A stretch of DNA of 32,000 nucleotides from contig CP060262.1 in assembly GCA_022646745.1 (NCBI GenBank), forward strand, positions 3,780,001-3,812,000, in the 5' to 3' direction. Shown here in pieces: positions 5,040-24,798 of this stretch. Positions within the stretch are counted from its first letter, which is position 1; each line of letters opens with the position of its first letter. This DNA is from Planctomycetales bacterium (GTDB lineage: Bacteria; 4484-113; JAFGCY01). The translations under genes were made by a program, and so were the position numbers. The notes beneath the pieces were generated by a model. That model was not told where the DNA came from and searched no databases. It saw only the letters and a list, made by a program, of their open reading frames with translations.

Positions 5040-5393
5040 TCACTCGTCGCCAAAACCGGACGTCCCTGCGCGCTCAAGCACGTCCAGCAGATACTCAACT
5101 CTGCGCCATTTGTTGTCCTGCAGCCAGATCAGGTACTGCCTCAGCACCCTCAGAGTTCGTTGCACTGTGCGCGGTGCCAGCCTTTCTCCCCGTCTGCCCA
5201 GCAGCAGGGCATCGCTCTGCAGGAAGCGCTCGATCTGGTGCGGCATGATTTCCTTCACCTGCCGATACTTTTTGAGGAATTCCGCCGCCTTCATCAGGTC
5301 GATCCTGTACTGCATTACCGTATTGTTCTTGTAACCCCGCTCATGCAGGCTCTCCAGATAGGCTTCAACCGTGCTGATAATCAAAGACTTCAT
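5040..5393 (-). CDS. Stand-alone phage-integrase SAM-like (core-binding) domain protein with no catalytic domain; possibly a truncated tyrosine recombinase.
   Basis: The ATG at 5393 is preceded by GGAGGA with 4-nt spacing, and the longer track ORF start at 5459 has no such signal. VEAYLESLHERGYKNNTVMQYRIDLMKAAEFL..IERFL resembles the N-terminal core-binding domain of tyrosine recombinases. The ORF ends after 117 aa without an R-H-R-Y catalytic domain. Confidence 0.55.
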   Translation of the reverse strand: MKSLIISTVEAYLESLHERGYKNNTVMQYRIDLMKAAEFLKKYRQVKEIMPHQIERFLQSDALLLGRRGERLAPRTVQRTLRVLRQYLIWLQDNKWRRVEYLLDVLERAGTSGFGDE

Positions 5394-5479
5394 GTTGTCC
5401 TCCTCTCGACGTCCAGCGCCGATTGGCTGACAACATAACTCGATTCCACAGATTAGCAAGCACGCCCGTGAATACCAGT

Positions 5480-8148: not shown

Positions 8149-8157
8149 CGCAATCCC

Positions 8158-8613
8158 CTAGGTGGGAATCCCCCACCATTTCCTTCCATTCTTCCTATTT
8201 CCTGCAATGACGGATGCTGCTGCTGAAGGAGACAGGTACTTTTTCCCGTTGACATCCACCCCCCGGTCAAGGATTGTCAGCGTGTATTCCTGCCCTTTAT
8301 GGACCCTCTTGTATTTGGTCCCCGCCGGCGGCAACCACCGCTTTTGTTGTTCAGGCTTTCCCTTCTGAAGAAAGGTGAAGCCGTCAAGCGGATCAACTCT
8401 TTGTTCTTCCAGCGCGCGGTGTAATTGCCCCCTGAGAACCTCGGAAACAGCACCATGCATGAGTTCCTGAACTCGGTAGCTCAGGCGACGAATGAGATGG
8501 CTGCGGGAGTACGCTGGTGGCTCTGTTCCCATCAGTTCAACCCAACGGATCTTCAGATCTTCTGTTGAAGATTTTTCCAGTTCCGCCAACGCAACCAGCA
8601 CCTTGTCATTCAT
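8158..8613 (-). CDS. DUF2924 domain protein, the canonical upstream partner of large serine recombinases.
   Basis: LKIRWVELMGTEPPAYSRSHLIRRLSYRVQE..GTKYKRVHKGQEYTLTILDRGVDVNGKKYLSPSAAASVIAGNRKNGRKWWG fits the DUF2924 pattern as I recall it. The ATG at 8613 is preceded by GGAGGA. The track start at 8661 is less likely. Confidence 0.8.
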   Translation of the reverse strand: MNDKVLVALAELEKSSTEDLKIRWVELMGTEPPAYSRSHLIRRLSYRVQELMHGAVSEVLRGQLHRALEEQRVDPLDGFTFLQKGKPEQQKRWLPPAGTKYKRVHKGQEYTLTILDRGVDVNGKKYLSPSAAASVIAGNRKNGRKWWGIPT

Positions 8614-8881
8614 GACATCCTCCGACATTATTGCCATGCAATGAACGCTCGCGGTCGCCAATCAAGTCAAGTGCTTCGGTCGGAGAATTCTGCGAATCTG
8701 CGTAATCGGAGGCGGTGTTATTCAGTCCTTCGGATCTGAGGCGAACCAGAGCACGAGAGAGAAGCTGCCCGATTTCGATGACACGATCCGAGGAAGTCAT
8801 TACTCCAGGTGGAACCTGGCTAACACTGCCAACCCCGAGATCGTCTGGGGAATCCGTTTTACCCGTAGAGTTCTTTCGCAC
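8606..8881 (-). CDS. Possible small hypothetical protein upstream of the DUF2924 gene.
   Basis: It is the only ORF in the 8614-9128 gap, is co-directional, and overlaps the DUF2924 start by 8 nt. It has a GTG start with no clear SD and no recognisable family. Confidence 0.25.
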   Translation of the reverse strand: MRKNSTGKTDSPDDLGVGSVSQVPPGVMTSSDRVIEIGQLLSRALVRLRSEGLNNTASDYADSQNSPTEALDLIGDRERSLHGNNVGGCHE

Positions 8882-9128: not shown

Positions 9129-9857
9129 CTACTGCAGAATTGCCTTAGTGTTCTTCTGGCGAGCCAAACTCAGACCGGCGCGAGTCCCCTTCACCAGTTC
9201 GGTATGATTGTCAATCAGCAATTCAGGGGTCAGATGTTCACGCTGCCAGCGAGATACCCAGGCCAGAATTGTCTTCTTCGTCGGCATCTTTTCACCTTCA
9301 GCGAGTACGTCTTCTGCCCGCAGCTTCTTCTCTTGGAAGCGAATCAGCTTATAAAAATCGTACCCTGTTATGCTGCAGTCTGGTGATAGTTGAAGATACC
9401 TGACCTGGAATCTAATCATACGAGCCGATTTTCCATTTTTGATTGATGGGAGCTTTGTGACATTCCACAACTCCCTTTCAATGAGACCATTCGCGTTCAG
9501 ATCTTTAATCATAGCCAGGAAATGAAGGTAGTCACGCAAACAGCAGATCAGCATCATTCCACGCCCGCTGCTGATTTCCACTTTCAGTTTGTAGGAGTTT
9601 GCTGCCCCACGGTTTACCTGTATATACAGGTAATCCATACACCTGATTCCACGTGCCCTTGCATCGTTTAAGACAGCCTCCGCCATAACGGCGGTGAAAG
9701 ATGTCAGCAGGGCTCCCATGCCTGGCCCAACAATTCTTCCAAGTTTGGCAACCCTATGGGTGTCAATCACTAGACCATCAACCTTTAGATAAGGGTTTGC
9801 ACCCAGGCTCGCCCGGAACTTAGCAAGTTGTCGCTTCTGAAATGGAGGTCGTCGCAT
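9129..9857 (-). CDS. Hypothetical protein (242 aa).
   Basis: This is a clean 729-nt ORF. There is no SD, but TTGACA-N16-TAAACT-N6 sits directly upstream of the ATG, which is a leaderless geometry. No family recognised. Confidence 0.6.
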   Translation of the reverse strand: MRRPPFQKRQLAKFRASLGANPYLKVDGLVIDTHRVAKLGRIVGPGMGALLTSFTAVMAEAVLNDARARGIRCMDYLYIQVNRGAANSYKLKVEISSGRGMMLICCLRDYLHFLAMIKDLNANGLIERELWNVTKLPSIKNGKSARMIRFQVRYLQLSPDCSITGYDFYKLIRFQEKKLRAEDVLAEGEKMPTKKTILAWVSRWQREHLTPELLIDNHTELVKGTRAGLSLARQKNTKAILQ

Positions 9858-9891: not shown

Positions 9892-11053
9892 TTGATTTCT
9901 TTGTCTCGAATAACATCCAATAATACAATTGAAGAATTGCGAGTGCATGCATTTCCTCCTATCATAACCTGGCAACGCACAACTAATAAAGATATGTCTT
10001 TCGAACTGCAGTTAATAGGCCAACCTCTTGACCAGCATGAACACTTGCCTCAGGGCACTTGACTCACACGGCGGTCGTCAAGAGCTTTTGGAGCACACTG
10101 CCTGAAATTCCCCCGAATTGCACCCATCTGACTGCCTGGGGATGTGATCGCGTCAAGTGCTTTGAGTGGTTGACCATCTAGTGCCCGGCCTTGTCCCCGG
10201 CAGCACGGGACGCATTGCATAGGGTGGAATTGCCGGTTACGCAGATGCCCGCGCACCCGCACTACTCGACAAGTACATTGGTGGGCCTTGCTCCACGAGC
10301 TTCGAACCTATTTCGAGGATAGCATGAATGACATGTAGAAAGTCAACTCCCTTGTCATTCAACTGCTTCTGATGGCTCGTATCTGTGCCTTCCACGAGAC
10401 CATGGCGGACGAGAGGAAACTTGAACCTCTTGCCTACGTGGACATCATGCATGCACCTGCTAGTCTCAGTACACTCACCTAGAATTCTCCGGTTCGTAGT
10501 GGTCCCAGGACGGCCTCTGAGGACCTGATTCCGTCCTGGTTTACCTATTCCTAAGGGTATTCTTAGGCTAGGAATAGGCAGTGCTTCACGTAAACCCGCT
10601 TCCAGACTGTGTAAACAGGCTGTTGCTCCCATCCAAAATGAACCCGACTCCGCCCCTCCCGCCGCCTGCATCACAAGCAGTCTCTGGTCGGGCTGGCGAG
10701 GCCGTGGAATACGGCCTTGAATTCGCCAGCACTTCGTGGCGGGTCGGCGGTGAATTCGCGCGGTAATGAGTACCGCGCGAGCCGACTGTGCGCGGGAGTT
10801 TTGGGTTGTTTGTTAGTTTTAGAATTTAGTTGGTTTGAAGGAATTGAATTGAATGAATGCTTGCCCACATCTCCACGGCACGGATACTCTTGCCAGCTTG
10901 CTACGAGATTATTCAGGTCTCTTCGCTGGCGCTGGCGCAACTGCCGTGGATATAACCGCCTGCCGGCTGACCGGCTGGCTTGGACAAGGAGTGGTTTAAC
11001 CTCGTGTAAAATTGTTATGCTGTGTCCTTTCTAAGGAATTGCTGACATCAAAA

Positions 11054-12409
11054 ATGCGCTTCATTGATCTATTTGCAGGCTTAGGTGGATTTAATCTCGC
11101 CCTGACATCGCTGGGACATGAGTGCGTGTTTGCGTGTGAAATTGAATCGCATCTTCAAGACTTGTACGAAGCAAACTTTGGTCTCCGGCCCGCTGGAGAT
11201 ATTCGGTCAAAAGGTCTTATTGCTTCAATTCCCGAGCACGACATACTTTGTGCTGGCTTCCCTTGTCAGCCCTTTTCCAAGGCTGGCGAACAGAATGGAC
11301 ATGATTGCCCTCAGTGGGGAGACCTTATTAACTACGTTCTCGAAATTCTAAGCACCCATCAACCAAGCTATGTGATCCTCGAAAACGTCCCCAACTTGGA
11401 GAAGCACAGAGGAGGTGAAACTTGGCGTCAACTAAAGAAAAGGCTTGAGCATTGGCGACGCGGATCTTTCACGATAGACAGTAGGATACTCTCACCTCAT
11501 TCCTTTGGAGTACCGCAAGTTCGTGATCGTATGTTTATAGTGGGCTCACGACATGGCTTGGAACACTTCAAATGGCCTTCAGGCGAAGGCTACCCAACTC
11601 CTGATCTGAAGTCTATCCTGGACACAAATCCACCCGAAGCAAAACCGCTATCAGCCGAAGCTATCCGCTGCTTGGATGTGTGGCAGGAGTTCTTGTCTGC
11701 TTTTCCCACATCAGAGGGGTTGCCATCCTTCCCAATATGGACAATGGAATTCGGCGCTGATTACCCATTTGAAAAACGTGCTCCATATTCTTATGGAAGA
11801 GCCTACTTGCAGAAATTTCGCGGATCATTTGGTCAACCGCTAACCTTACTGCCAGCCTCTCGTGTCATGGATGGTCTTCCACCTTATGCAAGACAAGCTG
11901 TTGACAAGTTTCCAGAGTGGAAAATCACTTTTATCAGGCAGAATCGTAGTTTCTATCAAAAACACCATTCTTGGTTAGATGACTGGCTTCCCAAGATACG
12001 TGAGTTTAACCCTAGCTATCAAAAGCTTGAATGGAACTGCAAGGGCTGCCCCCGAAAGATCTGGGACTATATCATTCAGTTTCGTCCATCAGGGGTTCGA
12101 GTCAAACGACCGAATACATCACCAAGCCTAGTGGCAATGACGACGAGTCAGGTGCCTGTTATTGGCTGGGAAAAACGCTTCATGACTCCACGTGAAGGAG
12201 CAAGACTCCAGAGCATGGATGAACTTAATCACTTGCCAGACGCTAGTACCCGTGCATACGAAGCTCTTGGCAATGCACTCAATGTGCAACTCGTCAGACT
12301 TATAGCGAAAGCGCTAGTACCCAGCGTTGATCAGCCCACAACAGTTACTGTGGGCGAGAACTCTGCAAAGGACTTGCCAATTAAGGTAGGAGAACGAGCT
12401 GCCCTATGA
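11054..12409 (+). CDS. DNA (cytosine-5)-methyltransferase.
   Basis: C5-MTase motifs appear in canonical order: I DLFAGLGGF, IV GFPCQPFS, VI LENVPNL, VIII GVPQVRDRMFIVG, then a long variable (target-recognition) region, then TPREGARLQS and GNALNV. The start is placed at the ATG 11054 (MRFIDLFAG), not the track start 11012. Confidence 0.92.
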   Translation: MRFIDLFAGLGGFNLALTSLGHECVFACEIESHLQDLYEANFGLRPAGDIRSKGLIASIPEHDILCAGFPCQPFSKAGEQNGHDCPQWGDLINYVLEILSTHQPSYVILENVPNLEKHRGGETWRQLKKRLEHWRRGSFTIDSRILSPHSFGVPQVRDRMFIVGSRHGLEHFKWPSGEGYPTPDLKSILDTNPPEAKPLSAEAIRCLDVWQEFLSAFPTSEGLPSFPIWTMEFGADYPFEKRAPYSYGRAYLQKFRGSFGQPLTLLPASRVMDGLPPYARQAVDKFPEWKITFIRQNRSFYQKHHSWLDDWLPKIREFNPSYQKLEWNCKGCPRKIWDYIIQFRPSGVRVKRPNTSPSLVAMTTSQVPVIGWEKRFMTPREGARLQSMDELNHLPDASTRAYEALGNALNVQLVRLIAKALVPSVDQPTTVTVGENSAKDLPIKVGERAAL

Positions 12410-13974
12410 ATGCTAGTCCACACGAAGATGTAGGTGGCACGGTTGGGATTCGACCCGGTGTCAGCATCTTGTCCGTGCTTCGACATCTCAACTATCGGCC
12501 TTGGTATGCCATAGCTGAATTCGTTGACAATTCACTCCAAAGCTATCTAGCACATAAATTAGCGCTGCAAGACGGAAGGCAAGCAATAGAAGCATTGCGA
12601 GTGGAAATCAGTCTTGAGAATGACCCTGAACCACGACTCGTAATTACCGACAACGCCGCTGGAATTTCCGCCCTCGATTTTCCAAGAGCATTTAGGCCAG
12701 CTGCAATTCCAACCGACACAAGCGGTCTGTCGGAATTTGGCATGGGAATGAAAAGTGCTGCCTGCTGGTTCTCACCTCGATGGATCGTCCGAACTAAAGC
12801 ACTTGGAGAACCAGTTGAGAGAATTGTGACATTCAACATTGCTCAGATCATTAAAGATGAGATTGAAGAACTGGCTATTGAAACTCGGCCTTCAAAACCA
12901 GAACATCACTTCACTGAGATTCAATTGTTGGATTTGCACGAACCTCCGCAGGGTAGGACAGTTGCAAAAATCAAGGAACACCTTGCAAGTATCTATCGTA
13001 TGTTCATCCGAAATGGTGAAATGAATATCTTCTACAAAGACAAAGAACTTAGCTTTGACAATGTGGGCATTCTAAATGCACCTTATTACAAAGAGCCGAG
13101 TTCTGATCCAGTTACTTGGTTCAAAAAAATAGACATGGATTTTGGGGCTGGTCATCGAGTAACAGGATTTGCCGCTTTGCGTGACCCAGGCAGCACTACT
13201 CATGCTGGTTTTGCGCTTTTCCGGCGCAACCGATTAATTCAAGGCAGTGCAGATGATGGCTATAGACCGTATCAAGTGTTTGGCGCTCCAAATAGATACC
13301 CGTACCAGCGTCTCTTCGGTGAACTGCATATGGAGGGATTCGAAGTTTCCCACACTAAAGATGGGTTCCGCTGGGACGATGGACTAGAGGATACTTTCCT
13401 TGAGCTGCTAAAGGAAGAGCTAAACAGCGCTCCACTTCCACTAATTACGCAAGCAGAGAATTTCCGAGCTCGGAAGTATAAAGCCGATTGGCGCTCTGGG
13501 GCTGAGAAGGCCGTTGCCAATACAGCAGATACCCTTGAAAAAGAGGCGATACCAGTCTTAGAAACGGAACGTGAGACACCCCCTTCAATTTCCGAGTTGC
13601 CTAGTGAGTTAGATGAACGCACATTGGTAACTAAGCAAGAACGCACGCTAGAATTCCGCAATGATACTTGGCAAGTCACTATTGAGCTTACTTCAGATGC
13701 AGCAGTTAGTGACTGGTTAGAGATTAGGAATAATGAACAACAACCGGTTACAGCTGATGGAAGAGTTGTCAGACACCTTGGAATTCGAATTTCTTTGGAG
13801 CACCCATTCATGCAGAGGTTTTGTGGGTTGTCATCCGATGAAATGGAACCATTGATTCGCTTGGCAGTTGGTATTGCTCTTTCCGAGGTTGTAGCTAGAG
13901 AAAGTGGTGTCCTTCAAGCGGGGACATTTCGCAGGGTATTGAATGACTTACTTGCCAACGCTCTAGCATTATAG
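12406..13974 (+). CDS. GHKL-superfamily ATPase (HATPase_c_3 / prokaryotic MORC-like).
   Basis: The Bergerat-fold boxes are present: AEFVDNSLQS (N box), ITDNAAGIS (G1) and SEFGMGMKSAACW (G2). There is an ATGA stop/start overlap with the methyltransferase at 12406-12409. Confidence 0.85.
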   Translation: MNASPHEDVGGTVGIRPGVSILSVLRHLNYRPWYAIAEFVDNSLQSYLAHKLALQDGRQAIEALRVEISLENDPEPRLVITDNAAGISALDFPRAFRPAAIPTDTSGLSEFGMGMKSAACWFSPRWIVRTKALGEPVERIVTFNIAQIIKDEIEELAIETRPSKPEHHFTEIQLLDLHEPPQGRTVAKIKEHLASIYRMFIRNGEMNIFYKDKELSFDNVGILNAPYYKEPSSDPVTWFKKIDMDFGAGHRVTGFAALRDPGSTTHAGFALFRRNRLIQGSADDGYRPYQVFGAPNRYPYQRLFGELHMEGFEVSHTKDGFRWDDGLEDTFLELLKEELNSAPLPLITQAENFRARKYKADWRSGAEKAVANTADTLEKEAIPVLETERETPPSISELPSELDERTLVTKQERTLEFRNDTWQVTIELTSDAAVSDWLEIRNNEQQPVTADGRVVRHLGIRISLEHPFMQRFCGLSSDEMEPLIRLAVGIALSEVVARESGVLQAGTFRRVLNDLLANALAL

Positions 13975-13983
13975 GAACTTACA

Positions 13984-16185
13984 GTGGATAACGATGTTAT
14001 AGAGGTAATTGAGGAGCAGCCAAGCCCATACTCCAAATGGTCACCTAGACAGGGGCGAAACACCCTTGCATTATTGGCGCGACTGTTTCCAGAGGATCAG
14101 TCTGCACGTGAGAGATTGGCACAGGAAGCAACTTCCGTCTTATCCTGCTGTATACCTCCTACGCAGTCTGATGGCGTGGACACGGGATTAGTTATTGGAT
14201 ACGTACAGAGTGGCAAAACCGCCAACTTTACCACCATTGCTGCATTGGCAGCGGATAACGGTTACAAACTAGTCATAGTGATTTCAGGCGTAGTAAGAAA
14301 CTTATTCAATCAATCCTGTGACAGGCTTCGGGATGACCTTGGTGTAGCTGAAGGCAATCGAGGTTGGTTATATCTACAGAATCCTACTCGTGCTCGAGAT
14401 GCAGCATCATTGCGAGCTGCGCTCACATCTAGACCACTAGCAGGAATTGAGCCTAGAACCACTTTGATAGTAACTCTAAAACACACTTCTCACATTCGAA
14501 ATCTCACGAACCTTCTGGCTAGCATTGGTGAGAATTCAATACCAACCTTGATAATTGATGATGAAGCTGACCAGGCTAGCTTGAACAATCGTGTAAGGCA
14601 GGGGGACGTTAGTGCAACATATCGCAGTATTGGTCAGTTGCGAGCAACGTTGCGCCAGCATACTTTCTTACAATTCACGGCCACGCCGCAAGCCCCTTTG
14701 CTCATTAGCATTTTAGATGTCTTGTCTCCGTCGTTTGTAGAGCTTCTAACGCCAGGCGACGAATATGCTGGAGGCAGGACATTTTTCGAAGACGAACGAC
14801 AGGCAAGGCTCATAAGAGAAATCCCGCCTTCTGATATTTCGACAAGAAATAATCTTCTGACGAGCCCTCCTCGAAGTTTACTCAGCGCTTTGGAGTTTTT
14901 TTACATAGGAGTTGCAGTTGGAATTTTCAGGGGCGAGCAAGCTTACAAGAACAGATCAATGTTGGTTCACCCAGACAAGAGTACTTCATCACACGCTCAG
15001 TATGCTAGATGGATTCTATCTACTCAGGAGGAATGGCGACGAATTCTTGAAGCTCAGGATACTGATGCTGACAGAATAGAGAGATTATCATTGTTCGAAC
15101 GAGCTTTCAACGATCTGCTCAATACAGGTATGGAATCGCCACCTTTCTCGGAATTGATTCCATATATTCAGTCCGCACTTGCAATCACGCAGGTTTGCCA
15201 AGTAAATTCAACACCTGCCAACCTTGAACCGCAATGGCGACAAGAATATTCCTGGATCGTGGTTGGAGGTGACAAGATCAATCGCGGCTACACCGTTGAG
15301 GGACTTACAGTAACATACATGCCTCGCGGGATTGGTGGCAGCAATGCTGACACAATCCAACAACGGGCACGATGGTTTGGTTATAAAGCATCATACCTTG
15401 GATTTTGCAGGGTCTATCTGACCCAAAACGTACGGCAAGCATATGTGGATTATGTAGAACATGAGGAAAGTGTCCGTAGAGCGCTTCACCAGCATCGGCA
15501 ACAGCGCTTGAGCGTACGCGATTGGAAGCGATTATTCCTGTTGTCAGCGAATTTACGTCCAACGCGTGATCAGGTAATCGACAGTCCGTACTTCCGAGGT
15601 GGACAGCCAAATTCTTGGTTCAAGATTTCTACTCCTCTTTACGACATTCAAACTACAGACCAAAACAGAGATGCTGTCAACAATTTGCTTAACAGCCTTG
15701 ATTTAACAGAACTAAGTGGAGATCCCCGCAGAACCAAAATGCAAACGCCCAAAGTTGGCAGATTATCAATGACTGAAATTCTCGAAGGGTTTTTTGCTGA
15801 GCTTACGTGGCCTGATCCAAGCGATGCCCTCCAATTCAATGGAATACTGTTCCAGATTGGCAACTTCCTTGATACCAATGCAGATGAAGACGTAGTAGTA
15901 TATGAAATGGCAAACGGCAAAAGTAGAATGCGCCCGGTCAATGCGCAAGGTCGAATCACATCCAACCTTCACCAAGGTGAAAATCCTCCCTCAAGAGGTG
16001 ACCAAATCAGTCGAGGCGAAGTCTATCCAGGTGACGTTGCCATCAGGGACAGCAATCAGCTTTCAATTCAGATTCATTGGCTTGATCTAGAACAGAATAA
16101 AGTCAATGTTGCACGTCGTGTTCCGGCTCTCGCGATTTGGCTTCCGAGGAGAATAGCGAGAAGTTGGGTCGCACAGAATCAGTAA
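13984..16185 (+). CDS. Z1-domain P-loop NTPase.
   Basis: Walker A is GYVQSGKTANFT and Walker B is TLIIDDEADQASLN, followed by FTATPQA. This is the pattern I associate with Z1-domain proteins. It has a GTG start 9 nt after the preceding stop, with AGGA upstream. Confidence 0.8.
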   Translation: MDNDVIEVIEEQPSPYSKWSPRQGRNTLALLARLFPEDQSARERLAQEATSVLSCCIPPTQSDGVDTGLVIGYVQSGKTANFTTIAALAADNGYKLVIVISGVVRNLFNQSCDRLRDDLGVAEGNRGWLYLQNPTRARDAASLRAALTSRPLAGIEPRTTLIVTLKHTSHIRNLTNLLASIGENSIPTLIIDDEADQASLNNRVRQGDVSATYRSIGQLRATLRQHTFLQFTATPQAPLLISILDVLSPSFVELLTPGDEYAGGRTFFEDERQARLIREIPPSDISTRNNLLTSPPRSLLSALEFFYIGVAVGIFRGEQAYKNRSMLVHPDKSTSSHAQYARWILSTQEEWRRILEAQDTDADRIERLSLFERAFNDLLNTGMESPPFSELIPYIQSALAITQVCQVNSTPANLEPQWRQEYSWIVVGGDKINRGYTVEGLTVTYMPRGIGGSNADTIQQRARWFGYKASYLGFCRVYLTQNVRQAYVDYVEHEESVRRALHQHRQQRLSVRDWKRLFLLSANLRPTRDQVIDSPYFRGGQPNSWFKISTPLYDIQTTDQNRDAVNNLLNSLDLTELSGDPRRTKMQTPKVGRLSMTEILEGFFAELTWPDPSDALQFNGILFQIGNFLDTNADEDVVVYEMANGKSRMRPVNAQGRITSNLHQGENPPSRGDQISRGEVYPGDVAIRDSNQLSIQIHWLDLEQNKVNVARRVPALAIWLPRRIARSWVAQNQ

Positions 16186-16203
16186 AGGTCTCCGGGGTCT
16201 TCC

Positions 16204-17220
16204 GTGCAACTTAATTTCTATGATAGATTTTTGGAATTGAAACCACCAGAGTCCTCGCACACTTCTTCATCGTATTCTGTGATTGAGTTACCAGATATTC
16301 CAGACATTCGTATTGGCAAGAGCCGGGATCTCAAACCAGCGATTCTGATTAATCTCTCTCTTCAATCAGAATTGTCAACTCCAGTGCCACCTATCAGACT
16401 TCGCCATATTGAGATTTACTCTAATTCACTCTGCCGCATACATTTACAGAATGGTGCAACCAGTGAAGAGAGACTTGCCTTAGTAGTTTGTCGTTCTGAT
16501 GACATCCAGCTTCAGTCTTATTTCCTAACAGTTCTTCCGATGATATTCGCAACTCACTTCGAAGCACAAGCTAATGACAATATAAATTCTGCCTTGTCTT
16601 CAGTTGCAGAATTGTTCAAGTTGATCGAAGAGCCGCCTCACAAATCAGTGCAAGCAATATGGTCTGAGCTACTTCTCATTGAGAGATCGAGCGATCCCTC
16701 TCGAATGTTGTCTGCCTGGAGAAATGGAGTCCATGATAAATACGACTTTTCAGATGGGATGAACAGACTAGAAGTAAAGTCCTCATCTCGTGGAGTAAGA
16801 ATTCACACGTTTAGTCTTGACCAACTCATGGCTCCACCCGATGTGACAGTCGTCATTGCTTCACTGTTAGTGAGAGAACTAGCAGGTGGAAGCTCAATAC
16901 GAAACTTGGTCAATGGGATCAGAAAGAAATGCTCTGACCCAACACTTTTGCTGAAGTTGGAAACTGTCATAACAAGAACGCTAGGAGCTTCCACTCCACA
17001 GGCTATTGAGGTTACGTTCGATCTGCCATTCGCCTTGGATGAGTTGCGTTACTACAATGCAACAATAATACCTGCTGTGAATCCTCCAATTCCAGGAGGT
17101 GTAAGCAATGTGCGTTTTGATTCTGACTTGGCATTTTGCTCTGTCTTAGTCCCATCAGCACTGTCTAACGACGAGAATTGTTTAACATCATTACTTACTA
17201 AGCCCAACAATATTATCTAG
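16204..17220 (+). CDS. PD-(D/E)xK motif protein (DUF4420-like predicted nuclease).
   Basis: DKYDFSDGMNRLEVKSSS gives a D..(E)xK nuclease core. The gene lies immediately after the Z1 gene, as in the recurrent dcm/HATPase/Z1/DUF4420 clusters. It has a GTG start and no in-frame ATG near the N-terminus. Confidence 0.7.
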   Translation: MQLNFYDRFLELKPPESSHTSSSYSVIELPDIPDIRIGKSRDLKPAILINLSLQSELSTPVPPIRLRHIEIYSNSLCRIHLQNGATSEERLALVVCRSDDIQLQSYFLTVLPMIFATHFEAQANDNINSALSSVAELFKLIEEPPHKSVQAIWSELLLIERSSDPSRMLSAWRNGVHDKYDFSDGMNRLEVKSSSRGVRIHTFSLDQLMAPPDVTVVIASLLVRELAGGSSIRNLVNGIRKKCSDPTLLLKLETVITRTLGASTPQAIEVTFDLPFALDELRYYNATIIPAVNPPIPGGVSNVRFDSDLAFCSVLVPSALSNDENCLTSLLTKPNNII

Positions 17221-17905
17221 CTTGTTGAGTTTCAGCCCAAAGACCGCCCCAGAAACCAACTTCTAAAGCGATCATATCATGCGTCCCCAACTTGACTAAC
17301 TCCTGGTTTTCTGAAGTCTCAACCCAAGGGGCAATGGCTCTCATAATGTCTGAGTAGTGATCATCGTCCCATTCTGCATGTACAAGCCAGAATTCCACAT
17401 CCTTTTCTGTCAACCCCCTTTTCATTAGCCCTTCTGCAATTAATTTGTACTCGGGTGCCGTAAAATACTCGGTACCTGGTCCAAGCGCTCCTAGACCCGT
17501 TAGGAAATGCGTGTCACGACAAACAGAAATCATTTTCTCTACGTAACCTAGGGTTAATGTTGTCGGAATATAGGTGTTTAACTCATCTACTGATACGCCA
17601 ACAGAATGTGCGAAACGCTTGAATAGATTTCTGTGCGAATTGCTGATATCACCACTTCCATGCTCTTCCCAAAGGTTGGTGATTAATATAGAGCGAGTTT
17701 CATCATCGGGAACGTTTGCCGCCACAAATGCAACACCCTTAACAAAACTTGTAGAAACGAAGTAGTATTCCCGAGTAAAAAACTTAAGAGCCTCTGAAGA
17801 GAGTTCGTTTCTATTTATTGCTTTTATAAAAGGATGATCAATTATGTCTCTGGATAGATTCGTTGCATACTCTTCTAGCTCTATCACAAACTCTTGCGCA
17901 TTCAT
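17213..17905 (-). CDS. Heme-oxygenase-like di-iron / iron-containing redox enzyme family protein (CADD/PqqC-like fold).
   Basis: LKFFTREYYFVSTSF..ITNLWEEHGSGD..SHRNLFKRFAHSVG..EFWLVHAEWDDDHYSD supplies the Glu/His ligand pattern typical of CADD/PqqC-type helical di-iron proteins. There is a 6-nt gap after the ALDH gene. Its stop overlaps the convergent DUF4420 gene by 8 nt. Confidence 0.75.
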   Translation of the reverse strand: MNAQEFVIELEEYATNLSRDIIDHPFIKAINRNELSSEALKFFTREYYFVSTSFVKGVAFVAANVPDDETRSILITNLWEEHGSGDISNSHRNLFKRFAHSVGVSVDELNTYIPTTLTLGYVEKMISVCRDTHFLTGLGALGPGTEYFTAPEYKLIAEGLMKRGLTEKDVEFWLVHAEWDDDHYSDIMRAIAPWVETSENQELVKLGTHDMIALEVGFWGGLWAETQQAR

Positions 17906-17911
17906 GCCTCA

Positions 17912-19411
17912 TTATCCTCCTTGAGACTCAGAATAAGGGAACCACCAATCGCGCTTTGCTTCAGTAGTTAACTCCAATGAAATATGCTTTGGACGGCAAT
18001 ACTGCCTGATTGCATGCTGTGAAAGCTCAAATCCAACTCCACTTTGCTTAGTTCCACCCCAAGCTGCCTGTGGGAACGCCACGTTGATGTCATTTATCCA
18101 GACCATCCCAACTTCTAGCTTTCTTGCCACGCTCTCAGCCAACGATAAATTAGAACTCCACACTGAAGCCCCAAGGCCATAATTGCTAGAATTGGACTTT
18201 ATAACTGCTTCATCAATAGTATCGAAGACATTTATAGGCATTACGGGTCCGAAACACTCCTCAGTCATAATACGCGACGTTTCAGGAACATCTGAAAGAA
18301 TTGTTGGAATATAGAAATTTCCATCTAAGCTCAGATTCTGACTTCCCCCATGTAATAACTCTGCACCGTTAGTAATGGCATCAGCAACAAAGTCTTTTAC
18401 AGAGTCCATTTGCTTGCCTGATATCAGAGGACCAATATCAACTCCTAGCCTAAGTTGAGCAGTCTTCTCAACAGCGGACTTAATAAACTCTTGTGCAATA
18501 CTGCGATGTACAAAAACTCGCTTCGGCCTGACACAAACTTGACCTGCATTGCAGAACGCCCCCCAAACTAGCCCATTTGTTGCTAATTCCACATCAGCAT
18601 CAGCCAACACTATTGCTGCGTCATTTCCACTAAGTTCTAGGTTGTACTTACAAAGTCGAGATGCACAATGTGACGCGATCTCAAGTCCCACTGGCACACT
18701 ACCGGTGAAGCTAACTACATTAACTCCAGGATGTCTGGCCAATACAGCGCCTGTTGTGCCGTCTCCGAGAACCATGTTGACAACACCTGGTGGAAAACCA
18801 GCCAACTCAAACAATCCAACGAGAAAACTTGCAGTTTCGGAGGAGTGCTCCGACGGTTTCAGAATTACGGTATTCCCTGCAACCAATGCAGGGCCAATAG
18901 ACCAAACAATCAATTCCAATGGGTAATTCCAAGCCTTGATTAAGGCTACTACTCCGAGAGGCTCCCACTGGTGCTTACTTTTCTTACTCGGCCAGATAGT
19001 TTCATCTAATTCAAGAATTTCATCCGTAATTTCACTTTCGGCAACCTGCACCATGTACCTAAACATGTCTACACTTTCCATCACTTCTATATCTGCTTCA
19101 GCAAAAACTTTGCCCACTTCTCTTGTGATCAACTTCTTCAAATCTGTTCTTTCAGAGGGAGACACAAATTGCTCATCAAGCAAATCTGCCACCTTATCCA
19201 AGTAGGAACACCGTTCGACAACCGATAGGGATTGCCACGCAGGAAGAGCTGCCTTTGCGGCGGCGACAGCCTCGTTAATCTCAATTAAACCGCCTATTGG
19301 GAGCTGTGACTTGGGCTCTCCACCTCCTGGCAGTTCGATCTGAACCCAATCAACCTCTGTACCCGAGGTCCAATTGCTATTGATAAAATGGCGTAGATGC
19401 TTGCGTTGCAT
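17912..19411 (-). CDS. NAD(P)-dependent aldehyde dehydrogenase family protein.
   Basis: ALDH signatures are present: LELSGNDAAIV (general-base Glu motif), FCNAGQVCV (catalytic Cys), EECFGPVMP and GTKQSGVG. Length is 499 aa. Confidence 0.9.
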   Translation of the reverse strand: MQRKHLRHFINSNWTSGTEVDWVQIELPGGGEPKSQLPIGGLIEINEAVAAAKAALPAWQSLSVVERCSYLDKVADLLDEQFVSPSERTDLKKLITREVGKVFAEADIEVMESVDMFRYMVQVAESEITDEILELDETIWPSKKSKHQWEPLGVVALIKAWNYPLELIVWSIGPALVAGNTVILKPSEHSSETASFLVGLFELAGFPPGVVNMVLGDGTTGAVLARHPGVNVVSFTGSVPVGLEIASHCASRLCKYNLELSGNDAAIVLADADVELATNGLVWGAFCNAGQVCVRPKRVFVHRSIAQEFIKSAVEKTAQLRLGVDIGPLISGKQMDSVKDFVADAITNGAELLHGGSQNLSLDGNFYIPTILSDVPETSRIMTEECFGPVMPINVFDTIDEAVIKSNSSNYGLGASVWSSNLSLAESVARKLEVGMVWINDINVAFPQAAWGGTKQSGVGFELSQHAIRQYCRPKHISLELTTEAKRDWWFPYSESQGG

Positions 19412-19417
19412 ACTGCT

Positions 19418-19423
19418 ATTATA
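19418..19423 (-). promoter_or_regulatory. Perfect -10 hexamer positioned for a leaderless ALDH mRNA.
   Basis: The minus strand reads TATAAT (19423-19418), then 6 nt (agcagt), then the ATG at 19411. There is no SD and the -35 is weak. Confidence 0.3.
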
Positions 19424-19495
19424 CTGTATGTGCCCACCGAAGGCGAGTAAGCCTCTTCACGCTTCGGAGGTTAGTTGTAATAATTGGTGATAGAT

Positions 19496-22270
19496 ATGTC
19501 AAATGTCAGAAAATTGGCGCACATCCTACACTTGTCTGATATTCAGTTTGGAAAATTTCATCGATTTCCAAATGGTTCAAATCGTGTTCAAAGCCATCAA
19601 GACTTAGATACAACGCCTTTATCTGAACGATTAGTCGAAGATATTGAGAAATTATCAAGTGTGTACAATATTCAGCCAAACTTTCTGATCTTAAGCGGCG
19701 ATGTAGCTGAATGGGGTCTTATGCGTGAGTTTGAAATGTGCAAACACCTTATTGAGGCACTAATCGCGTCCAGCTCGACAGATCTTCAGCCTGAACGAGT
19801 GATTATAGTACCAGGTAATCACGACATCAACAGAGACCTGTGTCAAGCATATTTTCTTGAATGCAAGGCAAATCAAGCCGAACCTGAACTACCTTATTTG
19901 CCAAAGTTCAGGTTCTATGATAACTTTGTAAACTCTGCTCCATCATTCTTTTCATCAGCAACCGGTGATAGAAATCCAGTAGTTTCTAATTACATACAGG
20001 ATTTTGGCCTTATTGTCACGGCATTCAACTCTTGTCTTAAAGAAAGTCATAAGCCTGAAGATCATGTTGGCTATATCGGTAGGCAGAATGTCCGACAAGC
20101 CATTAAAAAGATACAAGAGTTAGATCGAGAACATCAAGCGATTCGGATTGCTGTTCTTCATCATAATGTTATTAGGAATAGTGGAGAAGATAATCAGCAC
20201 CTTATAGACTGGAACGAGGTTCGAAGAGATATGTTATCTACATTCGATATCATTCTTCATGGTCACCGTCATCATGCTGAGCACCAGATATTGCAACTCC
20301 CTCAATCTCACCACGTTCTCATCTCTGGTGCCGGTAGTGTTGGACTATCTTTGAATCAAACATCAGGTATTCAAAATCATTATCAGCTAATTTCTATAGA
20401 ACAGGATATTGCAACTATTAGGGGACGTACTTACGAACTGCGTGGGGCAAGAGCAAACGAAACCTATGGGGAATTTACTGCCAAATTTGAGCAGGGATCG
20501 GAAGTCGTCGAAGTGAAACTGCGTAACTCCTTATCAGCGAACACCACTTCACAGGCAAGTTCAACAATTGATATCAGAGAATATTTAAACAACTCTAGTA
20601 AGTCTTTGCAAAGCGTAATTGAAAGGTCTTTAGACAGGATTGGCTCACACATTCCGTTGGAATGTGATTTGATATTATCAGGTGGCAAACGACAAGATCC
20701 TAGTGGTTCATTTAGTCTAGAAGAGTATTTTAACGATTGGTTAGGCAACACAAGCAATAGGCTTATATTGATTGCGGGTGCGGGCGGTGGAAAAACAACC
20801 TTTGCAGTCAATGCTGCCAAGCTACTTTCTACCAACTATTTAGATACCAATTCGGGAATTATTCCCATATACATAGATTTAAGTCTCTATAATTCTGAAG
20901 AGAGCATACTATCTATATTACTGGCAAATTTCAGAAGTAAGAGAGTGTCTTGTACCACTGAGGCAGTAAAAGAAGTGCTCGCAACACAAGAGATACTTCT
21001 CTTTTTAGATGCATTTGATGAGTACGATATTGGTCCAACATCAGCTTCATTCATCCGTGAGTTCATTGATTTCCATGAAATAGAAAAACCAAATATTAAA
21101 ATTGTAATCGGTTGTCGAGACAATCACTTCAGGAGTGTTGAAGATATACTAGTTCGTGAATCACGGCAAGGATTTCAATTGTGCCCTGTTTACGCTACAG
21201 TGATTAAATTGAAACCATTATCTTATGAGATAATCAATGAAGTACTCTCGCCATTATTGGGTGAACATAAAGTTTCAACCTGGATATATGATGTTGTATC
21301 CAATCCCTTGACCCTAAAGATGGTGGTATCCCTTCTAAAGTCTGGCAGCATTCAACCTGCCAATTTGTCAACATCTCAATTGACTCGTCATGAGTTGTAT
21401 GAGCAATTCATTACAAATATGATAAATTGGGATTTGCGGAAAAAAACTGCCCCCCATCTTCTTGATCAAAGGAAAATCAGAAAAGTGCTCATTCGAATTG
21501 CTGAAGTGCTGTTGGATCGTGGAGAAGCTTCACTTATGTTAGATCATTTCGACATAGTCGTCGAAGCTGAACTTGGCAAAGAAATTGCATCGAGTGAAAT
21601 CCAATTCCTACATGAACTGGCTGTTCTAGGATATGAAGGGGGAAGAATAAAATTCGTACATAAAGCTTATCGCGAATACTTGTATGCTAGAAAGATTGCC
21701 AATGATATTGCCATTGATGAGCGAGATTTTCAACTTCATTGGTTTACTCGGAATGAACGACACTTCATTGTAGAAATGTTAAGTGAGACAGAGATAGAAA
21801 CATTGTTTGACTGGTTGTCTGACCACGGCAACTGTCCTGCTAGTAACTATGCTGCGTTTATTCTGGGAGGAGTTGCTAAATCCAATGTTGAATCAGCCCT
21901 TAGAATGGCTCTCAACCGGTCGGACGACCCATTGTTAAAAATTAACTGCTGTAACTCATTAGCAGGTCTTGGAGTTTCAGACATATGCTCTCAGTTATTG
22001 GGAGCTGTTGCTGGTCATGCATTGGAGGAGGGGTTAATTGATCAAATGCCTGAACAAGGTTCTGAGGAATCAAAGGATTGGTTTAAAGAATTGCAGATAA
22101 AGTATGAGCGACGTTCTGTAATGATTTTACACTTATGTGAAATGATCGAAGCATTAGGTTTTTGTGGTTTGGACTTGTGTAAAAATGTGTTGGACTGTTT
22201 AAAGCTACACGAAAATCAATTGGTTCGAGAGGAAGTAAAATCGACCTCCAATAAGCTGTTAAATTGCTAG
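19496..22270 (+). CDS. STAND NTPase with an N-terminal calcineurin-like metallophosphoesterase, a central NACHT-type P-loop and C-terminal HEAT-like repeats.
   Basis: MPE motifs are HLSDIQFG, SGDVAEWG, VPGNHD, VLHHN and LHGHRHH. The NACHT part has Walker A LIAGAGGGKTTFA (~20776-20799) and Walker B ILLFLDAFDEY. HEAT-like repeats read AAFILGGVAKSNVESALRMALNRSDDPLLKINCCNSLAGLG..VREEV. The ATG at 19496 with GGTGA 5 nt upstream is preferred over the TTG at 19484. Confidence 0.85.
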   Translation: MSNVRKLAHILHLSDIQFGKFHRFPNGSNRVQSHQDLDTTPLSERLVEDIEKLSSVYNIQPNFLILSGDVAEWGLMREFEMCKHLIEALIASSSTDLQPERVIIVPGNHDINRDLCQAYFLECKANQAEPELPYLPKFRFYDNFVNSAPSFFSSATGDRNPVVSNYIQDFGLIVTAFNSCLKESHKPEDHVGYIGRQNVRQAIKKIQELDREHQAIRIAVLHHNVIRNSGEDNQHLIDWNEVRRDMLSTFDIILHGHRHHAEHQILQLPQSHHVLISGAGSVGLSLNQTSGIQNHYQLISIEQDIATIRGRTYELRGARANETYGEFTAKFEQGSEVVEVKLRNSLSANTTSQASSTIDIREYLNNSSKSLQSVIERSLDRIGSHIPLECDLILSGGKRQDPSGSFSLEEYFNDWLGNTSNRLILIAGAGGGKTTFAVNAAKLLSTNYLDTNSGIIPIYIDLSLYNSEESILSILLANFRSKRVSCTTEAVKEVLATQEILLFLDAFDEYDIGPTSASFIREFIDFHEIEKPNIKIVIGCRDNHFRSVEDILVRESRQGFQLCPVYATVIKLKPLSYEIINEVLSPLLGEHKVSTWIYDVVSNPLTLKMVVSLLKSGSIQPANLSTSQLTRHELYEQFITNMINWDLRKKTAPHLLDQRKIRKVLIRIAEVLLDRGEASLMLDHFDIVVEAELGKEIASSEIQFLHELAVLGYEGGRIKFVHKAYREYLYARKIANDIAIDERDFQLHWFTRNERHFIVEMLSETEIETLFDWLSDHGNCPASNYAAFILGGVAKSNVESALRMALNRSDDPLLKINCCNSLAGLGVSDICSQLLGAVAGHALEEGLIDQMPEQGSEESKDWFKELQIKYERRSVMILHLCEMIEALGFCGLDLCKNVLDCLKLHENQLVREEVKSTSNKLLNC

Positions 22271-22599
22271 CGGACATCCATTGTGAAAGAACACGAAGGA
22301 CAATCTATATGCTTCGGGTGATGCAGACACTTAGGACAACGACCGTAGTAATTACCAGGGCGAGAGTATCCGCATTCACACTTCCAAGCCCCCAACAGTT
22401 CTATTGTATGCCCGCAGAAGCGACAAACCAAATGTTCATGTGCCAGTTGCCGGAACCGGCGAGTAGCTGGAACCCTCATGCAGATGTAGTCATACAGGTA
22501 TAGAAAGAAGCGAGACCACAGGATTCCAGACGCAATTTCCCAGAAAGACTTGAGCCCCTTCTGGGCTTCCTGCACTCCATGTTGAATCGGATCAGCCAT
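22267..22599 (-). CDS. Small Cys-rich (4x CxxC-type) double zinc-ribbon protein with a hydrophobic N-terminal segment.
   Basis: The Cys pairs are CRFCGH..CECGY..CPKC..CPSC. The ATG at 22599 is preceded by GAGG at 8-nt spacing. It overlaps the Replic_Relax stop by 8 nt. Confidence 0.6.
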   Translation of the reverse strand: MADPIQHGVQEAQKGLKSFWEIASGILWSRFFLYLYDYICMRVPATRRFRQLAHEHLVCRFCGHTIELLGAWKCECGYSRPGNYYGRCPKCLHHPKHIDCPSCSFTMDVR

Positions 22600-23554
22600 T
22601 GTCAAACCTCAGTGCATCCAGCAGACTCAAGCGTTTGATATCAGTAATCTCGGCCTGCTTTAGCACCTGCTCATTGCGTAACCTGTACAGGTCAGTCCCA
22701 CGCACCCACAGCTTGGCTAGTGCGGAGTCTGGTGCAATCCCATCAAAGGTCGTAAACCAATACCCACGCCTGCCGCCAGAGGCGACTGTTTTTTCCGCGA
22801 TGGAGACCAGCCGCTTCTCGCTGGTGGTTACGGTTAGCAGTATAGCCCAGTGTGAATGCCACTTGGCTTCCAATTGCGCACTTTGCGTAAATTCTCGATA
22901 GACCTCTACCTTTTCCTGCCAGCGTCCGGTGGACATAGTACCCCGATCAACCTCAATGAAGTACACGCCATGCTCTCCCTCTGGTGGTTGCAGAAGTAGA
23001 ATCGCATCTGGGATGACTGACTTGTTGCGCCGGTGGCCGTCCTTGTCCATGAGCTGGACTGTCAGCTTGTGTTGCTTTGGATCTCCGCGAATGATGAGGA
23101 AGTCCTTCAGTTCGCCCTGGCTCTTGGCTCTGGTCAGTGCATGCTGGTACGAGATGAGCATGTCATTGATAGCAAGCAGGTGCTGGATATGAGTCGGTTG
23201 AACCTTGTTGAGATACCTGTTCCACTTTATTTGCTTGCGGTCTACGCCGTCATGTTCAGCCAGAAGGCCAGCACCTTTCTCGGTCATGGCATAAATCAAC
23301 CCTTCCTGTGAGGAAGAGACTGGGAGCTGGATTCTGTCGAGGTAGCCGTGATGGTAGAGATAGCGTAGGCGGACAGTCAGGTTCTTCTCGCTCGAATCAG
23401 GAAACAGCCACCAGACCTGCCGGGTGGAGAGGAATCGGTTTGAAAGCACTGCATGGAGTATCTCAAAGTCCCGCTCCACCAATGTGAAGCGAGGCGGATT
23501 CTTTGCCCGCTTTGTTCTCGGCAACCTTTTATCATTAGGTTTTTCTGGTGACAT
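22592..23554 (-). CDS. Replication-relaxation (Replic_Relax) family protein.
   Basis: The N-terminal wHTH-like region reads FTLVERDFEILHAVLSNRFLSTRQVWWLFP..LTVRLRYLYHHGYLDR..IYAMTEKGAGLL. It is followed by IPDAILLL..VYFIEVDRGT, typical of this plasmid/ICE family as I recall it. Confidence 0.75.
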   Translation of the reverse strand: MSPEKPNDKRLPRTKRAKNPPRFTLVERDFEILHAVLSNRFLSTRQVWWLFPDSSEKNLTVRLRYLYHHGYLDRIQLPVSSSQEGLIYAMTEKGAGLLAEHDGVDRKQIKWNRYLNKVQPTHIQHLLAINDMLISYQHALTRAKSQGELKDFLIIRGDPKQHKLTVQLMDKDGHRRNKSVIPDAILLLQPPEGEHGVYFIEVDRGTMSTGRWQEKVEVYREFTQSAQLEAKWHSHWAILLTVTTSEKRLVSIAEKTVASGGRRGYWFTTFDGIAPDSALAKLWVRGTDLYRLRNEQVLKQAEITDIKRLSLLDALRFDNG

Positions 23555-23577: not shown

Positions 23578-24798
23578 CTATCGCCAGACCCTTGCAGATG
23601 AAGCATCAAAATAGTGAAGATTCATACCTACTTCTCGTTTTGTGCCTTTTGCCGAGCCAGAACTTTGTCTTAGTCTATAATTCTGCGCGGCGCGTTTCTG
23701 GTTGAGTAACTCTCGAAGTGAAGCTATTCTATTTGCTTCATGAATGATTTGTTGATTCTCTGGAGCATTGCAGTCTCCATACAACCCGATAAACAACTCC
23801 TTGATTCGTCCATAAGCAATTGCATGTCTGATATGCTCATCATTGTCTTTGAAGGCTACTCCATAAGCAAACAATGACCCCGCTGCTTTGTTGCAGAAAC
23901 TTGAGAACGACCGAGCTAGATATGCATTGTGCAGGATTCTCTCACGCTTCTGTTCGTATTCTCCTTCACTCACTATAACGGGGTACTCTCCGTCAGCTAG
24001 CGCAGATGTTATCTGCGTGTGCAACGGCACATGTGTGCGACTCCAAGTTAACTTCTTGACTCTTTGCCCAGTATCAAACAAGTGTAAAGCCCCATGCAGG
24101 TACACAATGTCACAATCGTGACTACTTCCTAAATCCCACTCAACATAGTTCGTGTCTCCTTCTTCAGGTTCTCTGAATCCATCTCTGCAATTCAATCGTC
24201 CCTCTGCTTTCATGTATGTCCAGTAAAGCAGTAAGTCATAATTCAGAGAATATTTTGTGCCATTAAAATTTCCCAAAAAGCTTATACAACTTTCGTATTC
24301 TGTATCTTTGATATCAGTCGGCAGCGCTGGGTGTCTTTGAGTAATAGTATCTACTAGAATCCTCTGTAAGTTCTTTTCGTCTTCTTTTAGTTTGTTGACA
24401 AGCAACAGATTGGCTGGTTCATATAATTCAACTAGCTGGGCAGCATTCCTGATGTTGCGCATAACTACTTCAAAGTCAGTGGTATTCAATTCGTCAAAAG
24501 TCTTGCGTAACTCACCCTGAAGCTTCCCTGATTCAGTTGCTTCATCAAGTAGAGACCCATAATTAAACAGTTTGGGATTAAGAGCAAGACTGAACCCATT
24601 CCCCATTAGCAAATGTCTCTTGCCTTTGGATTCAGCGATATTCAACGCATTCTCAAATGACAGCACTTTCACTGATTCATTCATAGTCTTAAAAAGACTA
24701 GCATAAGCTAAGCCAGCCCGTCTTATGACCGGCTGACCTGCTTGCAGTAATCCTATGGGAATAACTTGAGCGCGGAATGCTCGCTTAAGCCTCATCAT
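23578..24798 (-). CDS. DUF4917 family protein (SIR2-like Rossmann fold, putative NAD-binding/NADase).
   Basis: LLMGNGFSLA, SLNYDLLLYW and VYLHGALHLF recapitulate the GxGxS / NYD / HG triad of SIR2-like domains and the DUF4917 pattern. The long start (24798) forms an ATGA overlap with the upstream gene. An alternative ATG at 24684 (MNESVKV) would give 368 aa. Confidence 0.75.
   Translation of the reverse strand: MMRLKRAFRAQVIPIGLLQAGQPVIRRAGLAYASLFKTMNESVKVLSFENALNIAESKGKRHLLMGNGFSLALNPKLFNYGSLLDEATESGKLQGELRKTFDELNTTDFEVVMRNIRNAAQLVELYEPANLLLVNKLKEDEKNLQRILVDTITQRHPALPTDIKDTEYESCISFLGNFNGTKYSLNYDLLLYWTYMKAEGRLNCRDGFREPEEGDTNYVEWDLGSSHDCDIVYLHGALHLFDTGQRVKKLTWSRTHVPLHTQITSALADGEYPVIVSEGEYEQKRERILHNAYLARSFSSFCNKAAGSLFAYGVAFKDNDEHIRHAIAYGRIKELFIGLYGDCNAPENQQIIHEANRIASLRELLNQKRAAQNYRLRQSSGSAKGTKREVGMNLHYFDASSARVWR

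Follow-up and report, generated by a model that had tools for sequence, protein, structure and literature searches.

Background

Heme-oxygenase-like di-metal oxidases (HDOs) are a young enzyme class, and nearly every characterised member (BesC, SznF, UndA, AetD, CADD) showed unexpected chemistry. BesC, the 4-chloro-allylglycine synthase, fragments an amino acid side chain and frees formaldehyde and ammonia. In CADD, Tyr27 is a sacrificial residue that becomes p-aminobenzoate (pABA) (PMC9522330). An HDO-domain protein, DtpC, forms an operon with the catalase KatE in Acinetobacter baumannii, where it protects from desiccation and oxidative stress (PMC13232832). Among defence proteins, DS-8, a metallophosphatase combined with NACHT, has been validated as a single-protein anti-phage defence (DefensePredictor, PMC13092281). 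Here we consider a pair of genes, for an aldehyde dehydrogenase (ALDH) and an HDO, in a 32,000-nucleotide stretch of contig CP060262.1 from a Planctomycetales bacterium (the window, meaning the whole stretch analysed). The pair lies between a four-gene operon containing a Dcm gene and a gene for a STAND protein with metallophosphoesterase and NACHT domains (MPE-NACHT).

A preliminary description of the window offered two readings of this arrangement: either the pair and the STAND sensor make up a system of three genes, or the pair is an unrelated cargo operon. The second fits best. We lean towards the view that the pair is an independent small-molecule oxidation module carried as cargo, namely, a version of the mobile X-ALDH-HDO cassette without X, a membrane-anchored protein described below. 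Its adjacency to defence genes would then reflect a shared cargo bay and not the role of an MPE-NACHT subunit. What is new here is a variant of the HDO class that is uncharacterised and for whose conserved gene partnerships we know of no description.

Results

Structure and expression signals of the pair

The pair and its signals are as follows.

17912..19411, minus strand: ALDH gene, NAD(P)-dependent aldehyde dehydrogenase, 499 aa (Pfam Aldedh, 2.7e-141)
17213..17905, minus strand: HDO gene, CADD/BesC-like heme-oxygenase-like di-metal oxidase, 230 aa (Pfam Haem_oxygenas_2, 7.6e-24)
17915..17922, minus strand: Shine-Dalgarno sequence AAGGAGGA for HDO, within the final ALDH codons and 9 nt upstream of the HDO ATG (sequence inspection)
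19412..19495, no strand: divergent 84-bp candidate control region between ALDH and MPE-NACHT (sequence inspection and consensus scan; pattern matches only)

The gap between the genes is 6 nt, with the ALDH stop codon at 17912-17914 and the HDO ATG at 17905. Considering this gap and the position of the HDO Shine-Dalgarno sequence in the last ALDH codons, the data indicate that ALDH and HDO form one translationally coupled operon. The 3' end of HDO shares 8 nt (17213-17220) with the convergent open reading frame (ORF) of the DUF4420 gene. On the other side, 84 bp separate ALDH from the ATG of the divergent MPE-NACHT gene (19496) and 72 bp from an upstream TTG (19484). The ORFs thus agree with the preliminary description as to the two-gene minus-strand operon, its position, the 6-nt gap, the 8-nt overlap and the 84-bp spacer.

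Pattern matches in this spacer include TATAAT on the minus strand at 19423-19418, which is 6 nt upstream of the ALDH ATG; no Shine-Dalgarno sequence is seen there, so a leaderless ALDH mRNA is possible. The consensus scan also gives a plus-strand promoter-like site at 19456-19484. A candidate operator in the same spacer is an imperfect inverted repeat, CCGAAGGCG/CGCTTCGG (19437-19445 / 19460-19467).

The HDO protein

Besides Haem_oxygenas_2 (PF14518), HDO matches TENA_THI-4 in Pfam (3.5e-13). The Glu/His ligands mentioned in the preliminary description are present: six residues, E81, H91, E146, H176, D180 and H183 (three His and three carboxylates), are invariant among 58 family members and coincide with the ligand positions of CADD in the alignment. 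The family profile finds BesC (7twa, 7.5e-21) as the top PDB match, followed by the CADD-type 4-aminobenzoate synthases 9pj4, 1rcw and 8va9 (about 1e-20 to 1e-18). The AlphaFold2 model, built from the 58 homologues, consists entirely of helices (pLDDT 97.5). In Foldseek it gives TM scores of 0.81-0.90 with BesC and CADD at 21-23% identity, and of 0.8-0.9 over the set of BesC, CADD, FlcD, HrmI and UndA. By fold and ligands, HDO belongs to the heme-oxygenase-like di-metal superfamily; Fe/Fe or Fe/Mn binding and O2 activation are predicted for it.

Within this superfamily HDO falls outside every named family tested. Its NCBIfam scores against the cut-offs are 70.6/200 bits for CADD (TIGR04305), 54.7/500 for BesC (NF042919), 25.5/130 for TenA and 15.7/240 for PqqC. 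When 1.84 billion representatives were searched exhaustively with HMMER, 13 clusters reached E<=1e-30, and no relative was more than 50% identical to the HDO of the window. Judging by sequence, it represents a small uncharacterised subfamily with BesC and CADD as the nearest named families. The position of CADD Tyr27 is occupied by Ile26 in the window and by I/L/V throughout the HDO family. Arg71 and Arg92 are invariant across the family and could bind an anionic group.

Distant relatives (29-32% identity; P0272, P0315, P0373, P0274, P0295) occur in fusion with domains of signalling or redox function. The fusions are REC-Hpt-HDO, a hybrid histidine kinase HNOBA-HisKA-HATPase-REC-Hpt-HDO, rubredoxin/PCP_red-HDO and HDO-cupin-globin.

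The ALDH protein

The Aldedh domain (PF00171) is full length and spans residues 23-477. Cys293 (GQVC), Glu259 (LELSGND), Asn162 and Lys185 stand in invariant columns of the alignment of 28 subfamily members, and so do G237 and G242. The catalytic Cys, the general-base Glu, the oxyanion Asn and the NAD(P) site of the superfamily are all present; accordingly, the catalytic Cys and Glu are intact, as had been supposed. The subfamily also bears a C-terminal motif RxWW(F/Y)PY.

Named ALDH equivalogs (BADH, SSADH, ABALDH, StyD, SafD, PhnY) were considered and rejected, since all are below the cut-off among the best 25 of 43 NCBIfam matches; the best of them, BADH, scores 366 bits against a cut-off of 668.6. 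The protein is equidistant from ALDH1A3, BADH, AMSDH and others, with all PDB matches at about 1e-82.

The ALDH subfamily is large and mostly has no HDO linkage. In a metagenome scan seeded with the subfamily alignment, an HDO was found next to ALDH relatives in 0 of the 80 loci among the matches listed, which were mostly generic ALDHs of 31-39% identity. One locus (L066, 8797-12285) has a member of the ALDH subfamily (49% identity) but no HDO; it is situated on another mobile element, close to NikA and an ArdC-N-like protein. Therefore, this subfamily is also carried by another mobile element without HDO.

Three conserved settings of HDO

The first setting is an importer operon. Among species-representative genomes we found 45 close HDO homologues, nearly all in Saprospiraceae and Chitinophagales. 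Parts of an ATP-binding cassette (ABC) importer flank 42 of the 45, and all three parts are present in 33. The importer is of the TauABC/SsuABC (taurine/sulfonate) type, and the usual order is substrate-binding protein, permease, HDO, ATPase. These loci are L007, L013-L055 and L061 (for example, L007 7361-11540), and their binding protein, of the NMT1 type, has a C-terminal OmpA-like domain. One homologue outside the ABC setting adjoins a sodium:solute symporter. We presume that the Saprospiraceae operon resembles the ThiXYZ-TenA salvage operons in layout, with a metal-binding oxidase as the enzyme.

The second setting is the X-ALDH-HDO trio, found in all five other independent ALDH-HDO loci (L008, L009-11, L146, L147/148, L154). 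Compared with the window, ALDH is 48-50% and HDO 40-43% identical, and the gene order and tight spacing are the same. In each of the five, X immediately precedes ALDH, as listed here.

L008, 6811-8427: X
L146, 279-1868: X
L147, 3319-4830: X
L009, 11-931: X
L154, 3-425: X

X is a membrane-anchored protein of 500-540 aa, 47-50% identical between loci, with a C-terminal coiled coil, two transmembrane helices and DGxWG-like motifs reminiscent of alpha/alpha-toroid repeats. It has no match in Pfam, NCBIfam or the PDB, and nothing better than E 0.049 in PADLOC. Tailoring enzymes are encoded downstream of the trio: in L008 and L009-L011 these are a macrolide-type glycosyltransferase and a SnoaL-like protein, and L146 has a methyltransferase. 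We found no published account of the trio.

The third setting is a cassette with a STAND NTPase: HDO, a peroxiredoxin, an NB-ARC/TPR protein and an APH-family kinase in four loci, one of them rearranged.

L012, 7341-12756: STAND cassette
L152, 5859-12270: STAND cassette
L153, 1132-6713: STAND cassette
L065, 14-2927: STAND cassette, rearranged

Identities between these loci are 32-60%. The NB-ARC protein (about 1000 aa) consists of two N-terminal transmembrane helices, a coiled coil, NB-ARC and TPR; the peroxiredoxin is of the AhpC/BCP type, and the kinase is an APH-family small-molecule kinase. A published description of this cassette was likewise not found. The L012 cassette adjoins Replic_Relax/TrwB genes of a mobile element. 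The ALDH-linked HDO of L154 is 68% identical to the STAND-linked HDO of L152; therefore, one enzyme is used with different sets of partners.

Neither an ORF nor a remnant of X was found in the window (phmmer, tblastn), and the glycosyltransferase, SnoaL-like and methyltransferase genes that follow the trio elsewhere are absent. No peroxiredoxin, NB-ARC/TPR or APH gene adjoins HDO, and no significant remnant of peroxiredoxin, NB-ARC, APH, glycosyltransferase, SnoaL or ABC parts was detected in the window. A 242-aa ORF without a Pfam match (9129-9857, minus strand) gives a weak thioredoxin-fold/peroxiredoxin-like tblastn match to the peroxiredoxins of the cassette (E 0.003, over 71-77 aa); it lies about 8 kb from HDO and is the sole trace of the STAND-cassette parts in the window.

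Relation to the STAND gene

The proposal that the pair and the STAND sensor form a three-gene system included a check of whether ALDH-HDO pairs co-occur with MPE-NACHT genes. They do not in our data: an MPE-NACHT or any other STAND neighbour occurs in 0 of the five other ALDH-HDO loci (a small sample), where X is found instead, and no MPE-NACHT neighbour occurs in any of the three settings. PADLOC-DB 2.0 has no model that matches ALDH or HDO at E<=0.01. The literature search gave nothing relevant that links HDO or ALDH to anti-phage systems. Clear defence islands were not seen around the related cassettes; PADLOC applied to 57 neighbours gave scattered matches of the regulator or mobile type (CapP/CapH, RmrA, mad). 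By hhalign, X is not homologous to MPE-NACHT or to the NB-ARC/TPR proteins.

These results, together with DS-8 acting alone, speak against the three-gene proposal in the form in which it was made. The pair occurs elsewhere without STAND neighbours, as part of another recognisable cassette, and this largely agrees with the observation that the preliminary description named as refuting the proposal. The proposal that these are small-molecule enzymes and not enzymes of core metabolism is supported by the rarity of the HDO subfamily. Also supported are the position of the pair in low-GC cargo and the recurrence of the pairing in five other loci.

The mobile element and other genes of the window

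The remaining features are listed below.

11012..17220, plus strand: Dcm-GHKL-Z1-DUF4420 four-gene operon (Pfam Dcm, HATPase_c_3, Z1, DUF4420), convergent on HDO
19496..22270, plus strand: MPE-NACHT STAND protein, 924 aa from the ATG (Metallophos 6.3e-10; NACHT 0.001, weak)
6619-8661: large serine recombinase with DUF2924, element gene
22592-23554: Replic_Relax gene, element gene
23578-24798, minus strand: DUF4917 protein, PADLOC candidate PDC-S21 (8.9e-109)
20-4930, plus strand: DEAD/Helicase_C protein with an MrfA-type Zn-binding (MZB) domain, 1636 aa, host-like GC of 0.59
5040-5459, minus strand: tyrosine-integrase fragment, N-terminal SAM-like domain only, 139 aa

The GC content is 0.42 in HDO, 0.455 in ALDH, 0.43-0.48 in the Dcm operon and 0.39 in MPE-NACHT; elsewhere it is 0.51-0.53 in the element backbone and 0.52-0.59 in the flanks. 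The AT-rich composition that the pair was said to share with its neighbours is therefore real (0.39-0.48 against 0.51-0.53). Because of this difference and the presence of the serine recombinase, DUF2924 and Replic_Relax, we conclude that the pair is part of the low-GC cargo carried by a mobile element, which is integrated in this Planctomycetales metagenome-assembled genome (contig of 4.11 Mb). At third codon positions (GC3) the value is 0.33 for MPE-NACHT versus 0.38-0.40 for the pair, which is closer to the Dcm operon. The island probably has its left edge in the region of the integrase fragment and the helicase, and housekeeping genes begin at about 27.5 kb of the window. The DUF4917 gene is a low-GC (0.425) insert amid backbone genes with a GC of about 0.53.

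Pfam recovers the neighbours named in the preliminary description, both Dcm-GHKL-Z1-DUF4420 and MPE-NACHT, except for the HEAT part of the latter. In PADLOC the Dcm gene matches cytosine-methylase models (the best is DruM) and the Z1 gene matches Helicase_II and MzaC. The MPE-NACHT protein matches the NCBIfam models for DS-9A and DS-8 (DS9_1, 1.5e-26, and DS8, 9.5e-22), both far under the cut-off, and PDC-S60 in PADLOC (3e-14).

A nucleotide search of plasmids gave no match to the pair, and plasmid proteins gave only distant matches (22-29% identity) to HDO and MPE-NACHT. Neither the HDO family nor MPE-NACHT was found in viral contigs.

Discussion

Proposed function

We presume that the pair would carry out two consecutive oxidations of one small, polar and probably exogenous metabolite. 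At its di-metal site (Fe/Fe or Fe/Mn), HDO would activate O2 and thereby oxidise or cleave into fragments a small substrate bearing an amine or acid group. ALDH, with Cys293, Glu259 and NAD(P)+, would convert the aldehyde released in the HDO reaction into a carboxylate or else supply HDO with a carboxylate substrate, so that either order of the two steps may be envisaged. A small imported solute is suggested as the substrate class because HDO homologues occur in ABC-importer operons and, once, beside a symporter; the importer context and the invariant Arg71 and Arg92 together point to a small polar exogenous metabolite. The three settings of HDO suggest that a single reaction of a single small metabolite serves both in metabolism linked to transport and in mobile modules that may have to do with conflict.

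In terms of the reading that we favour, the pair of the window would be a deep-branching copy of the X-ALDH-HDO module, which recurs in variable or mobile-looking contexts; the element would have acquired it as cargo, as it did the neighbouring genes. Several observations weigh against it. The STAND gene occupies the place of X, directly upstream of ALDH at 84 bp, and in four loci HDOs of the same subfamily share a conserved cassette with a different STAND NTPase. Since all five other pairs come with X and the window has not even a remnant of it, the pair may be incomplete. Neighbour-joining trees left a sister relation of the window HDO or ALDH to the other linked pairs unsupported. ALDH provides no substrate clue because it is equidistant from many characterised ALDHs. 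Finally, the island is also present in six metagenome contigs, but as essentially identical DNA (one mismatch altogether), and these therefore give no independent evidence on linkage or selection.

Alternative explanations

It is tempting to propose that MPE-NACHT took the place of X and that ALDH-HDO synthesises or eliminates a small molecule by which the STAND protein is armed or triggered, or which it consumes. This molecule might be a ligand, or else the phosphoesterase might act on it or release it. The STAND gene stands exactly at the position of X, divergent over 84 bp that contain the inverted repeat; the HDO subfamily is repeatedly paired with a large sensor-like protein (X in five loci, the NB-ARC/TPR protein with two transmembrane helices in four); the 68% identity of the L154 and L152 enzymes suggests one enzyme for both partner sets; and distant relatives are fused to two-component signalling domains. 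We nevertheless regard such a three-gene system as rather unlikely. A second independent locus with ALDH-HDO and MPE-NACHT was not found. The NB-ARC/TPR proteins and MPE-NACHT have no relationship apart from their common STAND class, and X is homologous to neither. DS-8, which has the same architecture, suffices alone. The pair and MPE-NACHT are on opposite strands, and the GC3 of the pair resembles that of the Dcm operon and differs from that of MPE-NACHT.

The pair could also be what remained of an X-ALDH-HDO cassette, with or without tailoring genes, after recombination or the insertion of MPE-NACHT: intact in sequence and without a role in the host. The constant presence of X elsewhere agrees with this, as do the missing tailoring genes, the abutment of HDO on the convergent operon and the mosaic nature of the island, whose low-GC blocks were acquired separately. 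We consider a stranded fragment unlikely, however, considering that both ORFs are full length with all invariant residues kept, that the Shine-Dalgarno sequence and the coupling are intact, and that a -10 element lies directly upstream. Moreover, HDO stands without X or ALDH in the ABC operons, and so the enzymes are apparently not intrinsically dependent on X.

A broader proposal concerns the HDO subfamily as a whole: its members may serve large sensors as dedicated small-molecule partners, making or removing a metabolite that is sensed or acted on by STAND NTPases or X. The cassette of HDO, peroxiredoxin, NB-ARC/TPR protein and kinase may be one case, and ALDH-HDO of the window, with a DS-8-like MPE-NACHT replacing X, may be another. 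Given the recurrent HDO-STAND cassette, a functional link between HDO and STAND proteins is possible, although we think it doubtful that this role extends to the subfamily in general. If true, it would be the first case of a STAND immune or conflict module linked with a pathway that uses an O2-dependent di-iron oxidase.

A known vitamin enzyme (CADD-type pABA synthase, TenA thiaminase II or PqqC, with ALDH incidental) is highly improbable: the top NCBIfam match is the folate-related CADD family (1.3e-19), the fold agrees with CADD at TM 0.85-0.90 and the Saprospiraceae operon presumably recalls ThiXYZ-TenA, but the CADD, TenA, PqqC and BesC scores are all far under the curated cut-offs, the sacrificial Tyr27 is replaced by Ile26 (I/L/V family-wide), the six metal ligands are invariant whereas TenA and PqqC are non-metalloenzymes, and folate, thiamin or PQQ genes were not seen nearby.

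Significance

We believe that the pair is of interest in two respects. It brings to notice a rare uncharacterised HDO subfamily in which the metal ligands are conserved and the settings differ sharply: an importer operon, a trio with a membrane protein and ALDH, and a STAND/kinase/peroxiredoxin cassette. It is also a caution for the mining of defence islands: shared cargo space can account for an enzyme operon found among immune genes, and the usual partner of this operon elsewhere is a different gene.

Comparison with known systems

BesC is the best match of HDO both by profile (7.5e-21) and in Foldseek (TM 0.81-0.84); the helical heme-oxygenase-like fold is common to the two, and a small soluble substrate is to be expected. 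The formaldehyde released by BesC would loosely suit the neighbouring ALDH. However, the HDO of the window is only 22-23% identical to BesC and reaches 54.7 bits against 500, and its neighbours are defence and mobile genes, with no bes halogenase or pathway genes.

CADD (Chlamydia CT610, 1rcw/8va9), the self-sacrificing Fe/Mn pABA synthase, is similar in size, in fold (TM up to 0.90) and in the six ligand positions. It differs in that HDO has Ile/Leu/Val in place of Tyr27, is below the family cut-off and has no folate gene context.

DS-8 resembles the neighbouring MPE-NACHT in its layout of an N-terminal metallophosphoesterase and a NACHT-type NTPase. The neighbour scores 76.6 bits against a cut-off of 790, i.e., it is a remote relative and not a member; furthermore, DS-8 needs no accessory enzymes, and no ALDH- or HDO-like partner has been described for it (PMC13092281).

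The DtpC-KatE operon is comparable in gene layout: an HDO-domain protein stands beside a peroxide scavenger, as it does beside the peroxiredoxin in L012, L152 and L153. DtpC is a larger and different protein, and the pair of the window has no adjoining peroxiredoxin or catalase.

A further counterpart is the X-ALDH-HDO trio. Although X and the downstream glycosyltransferase, SnoaL-like protein and methyltransferase are not found in the window, an ALDH of the same subfamily is followed there by an HDO of the same subfamily, in the same order and with tight spacing.

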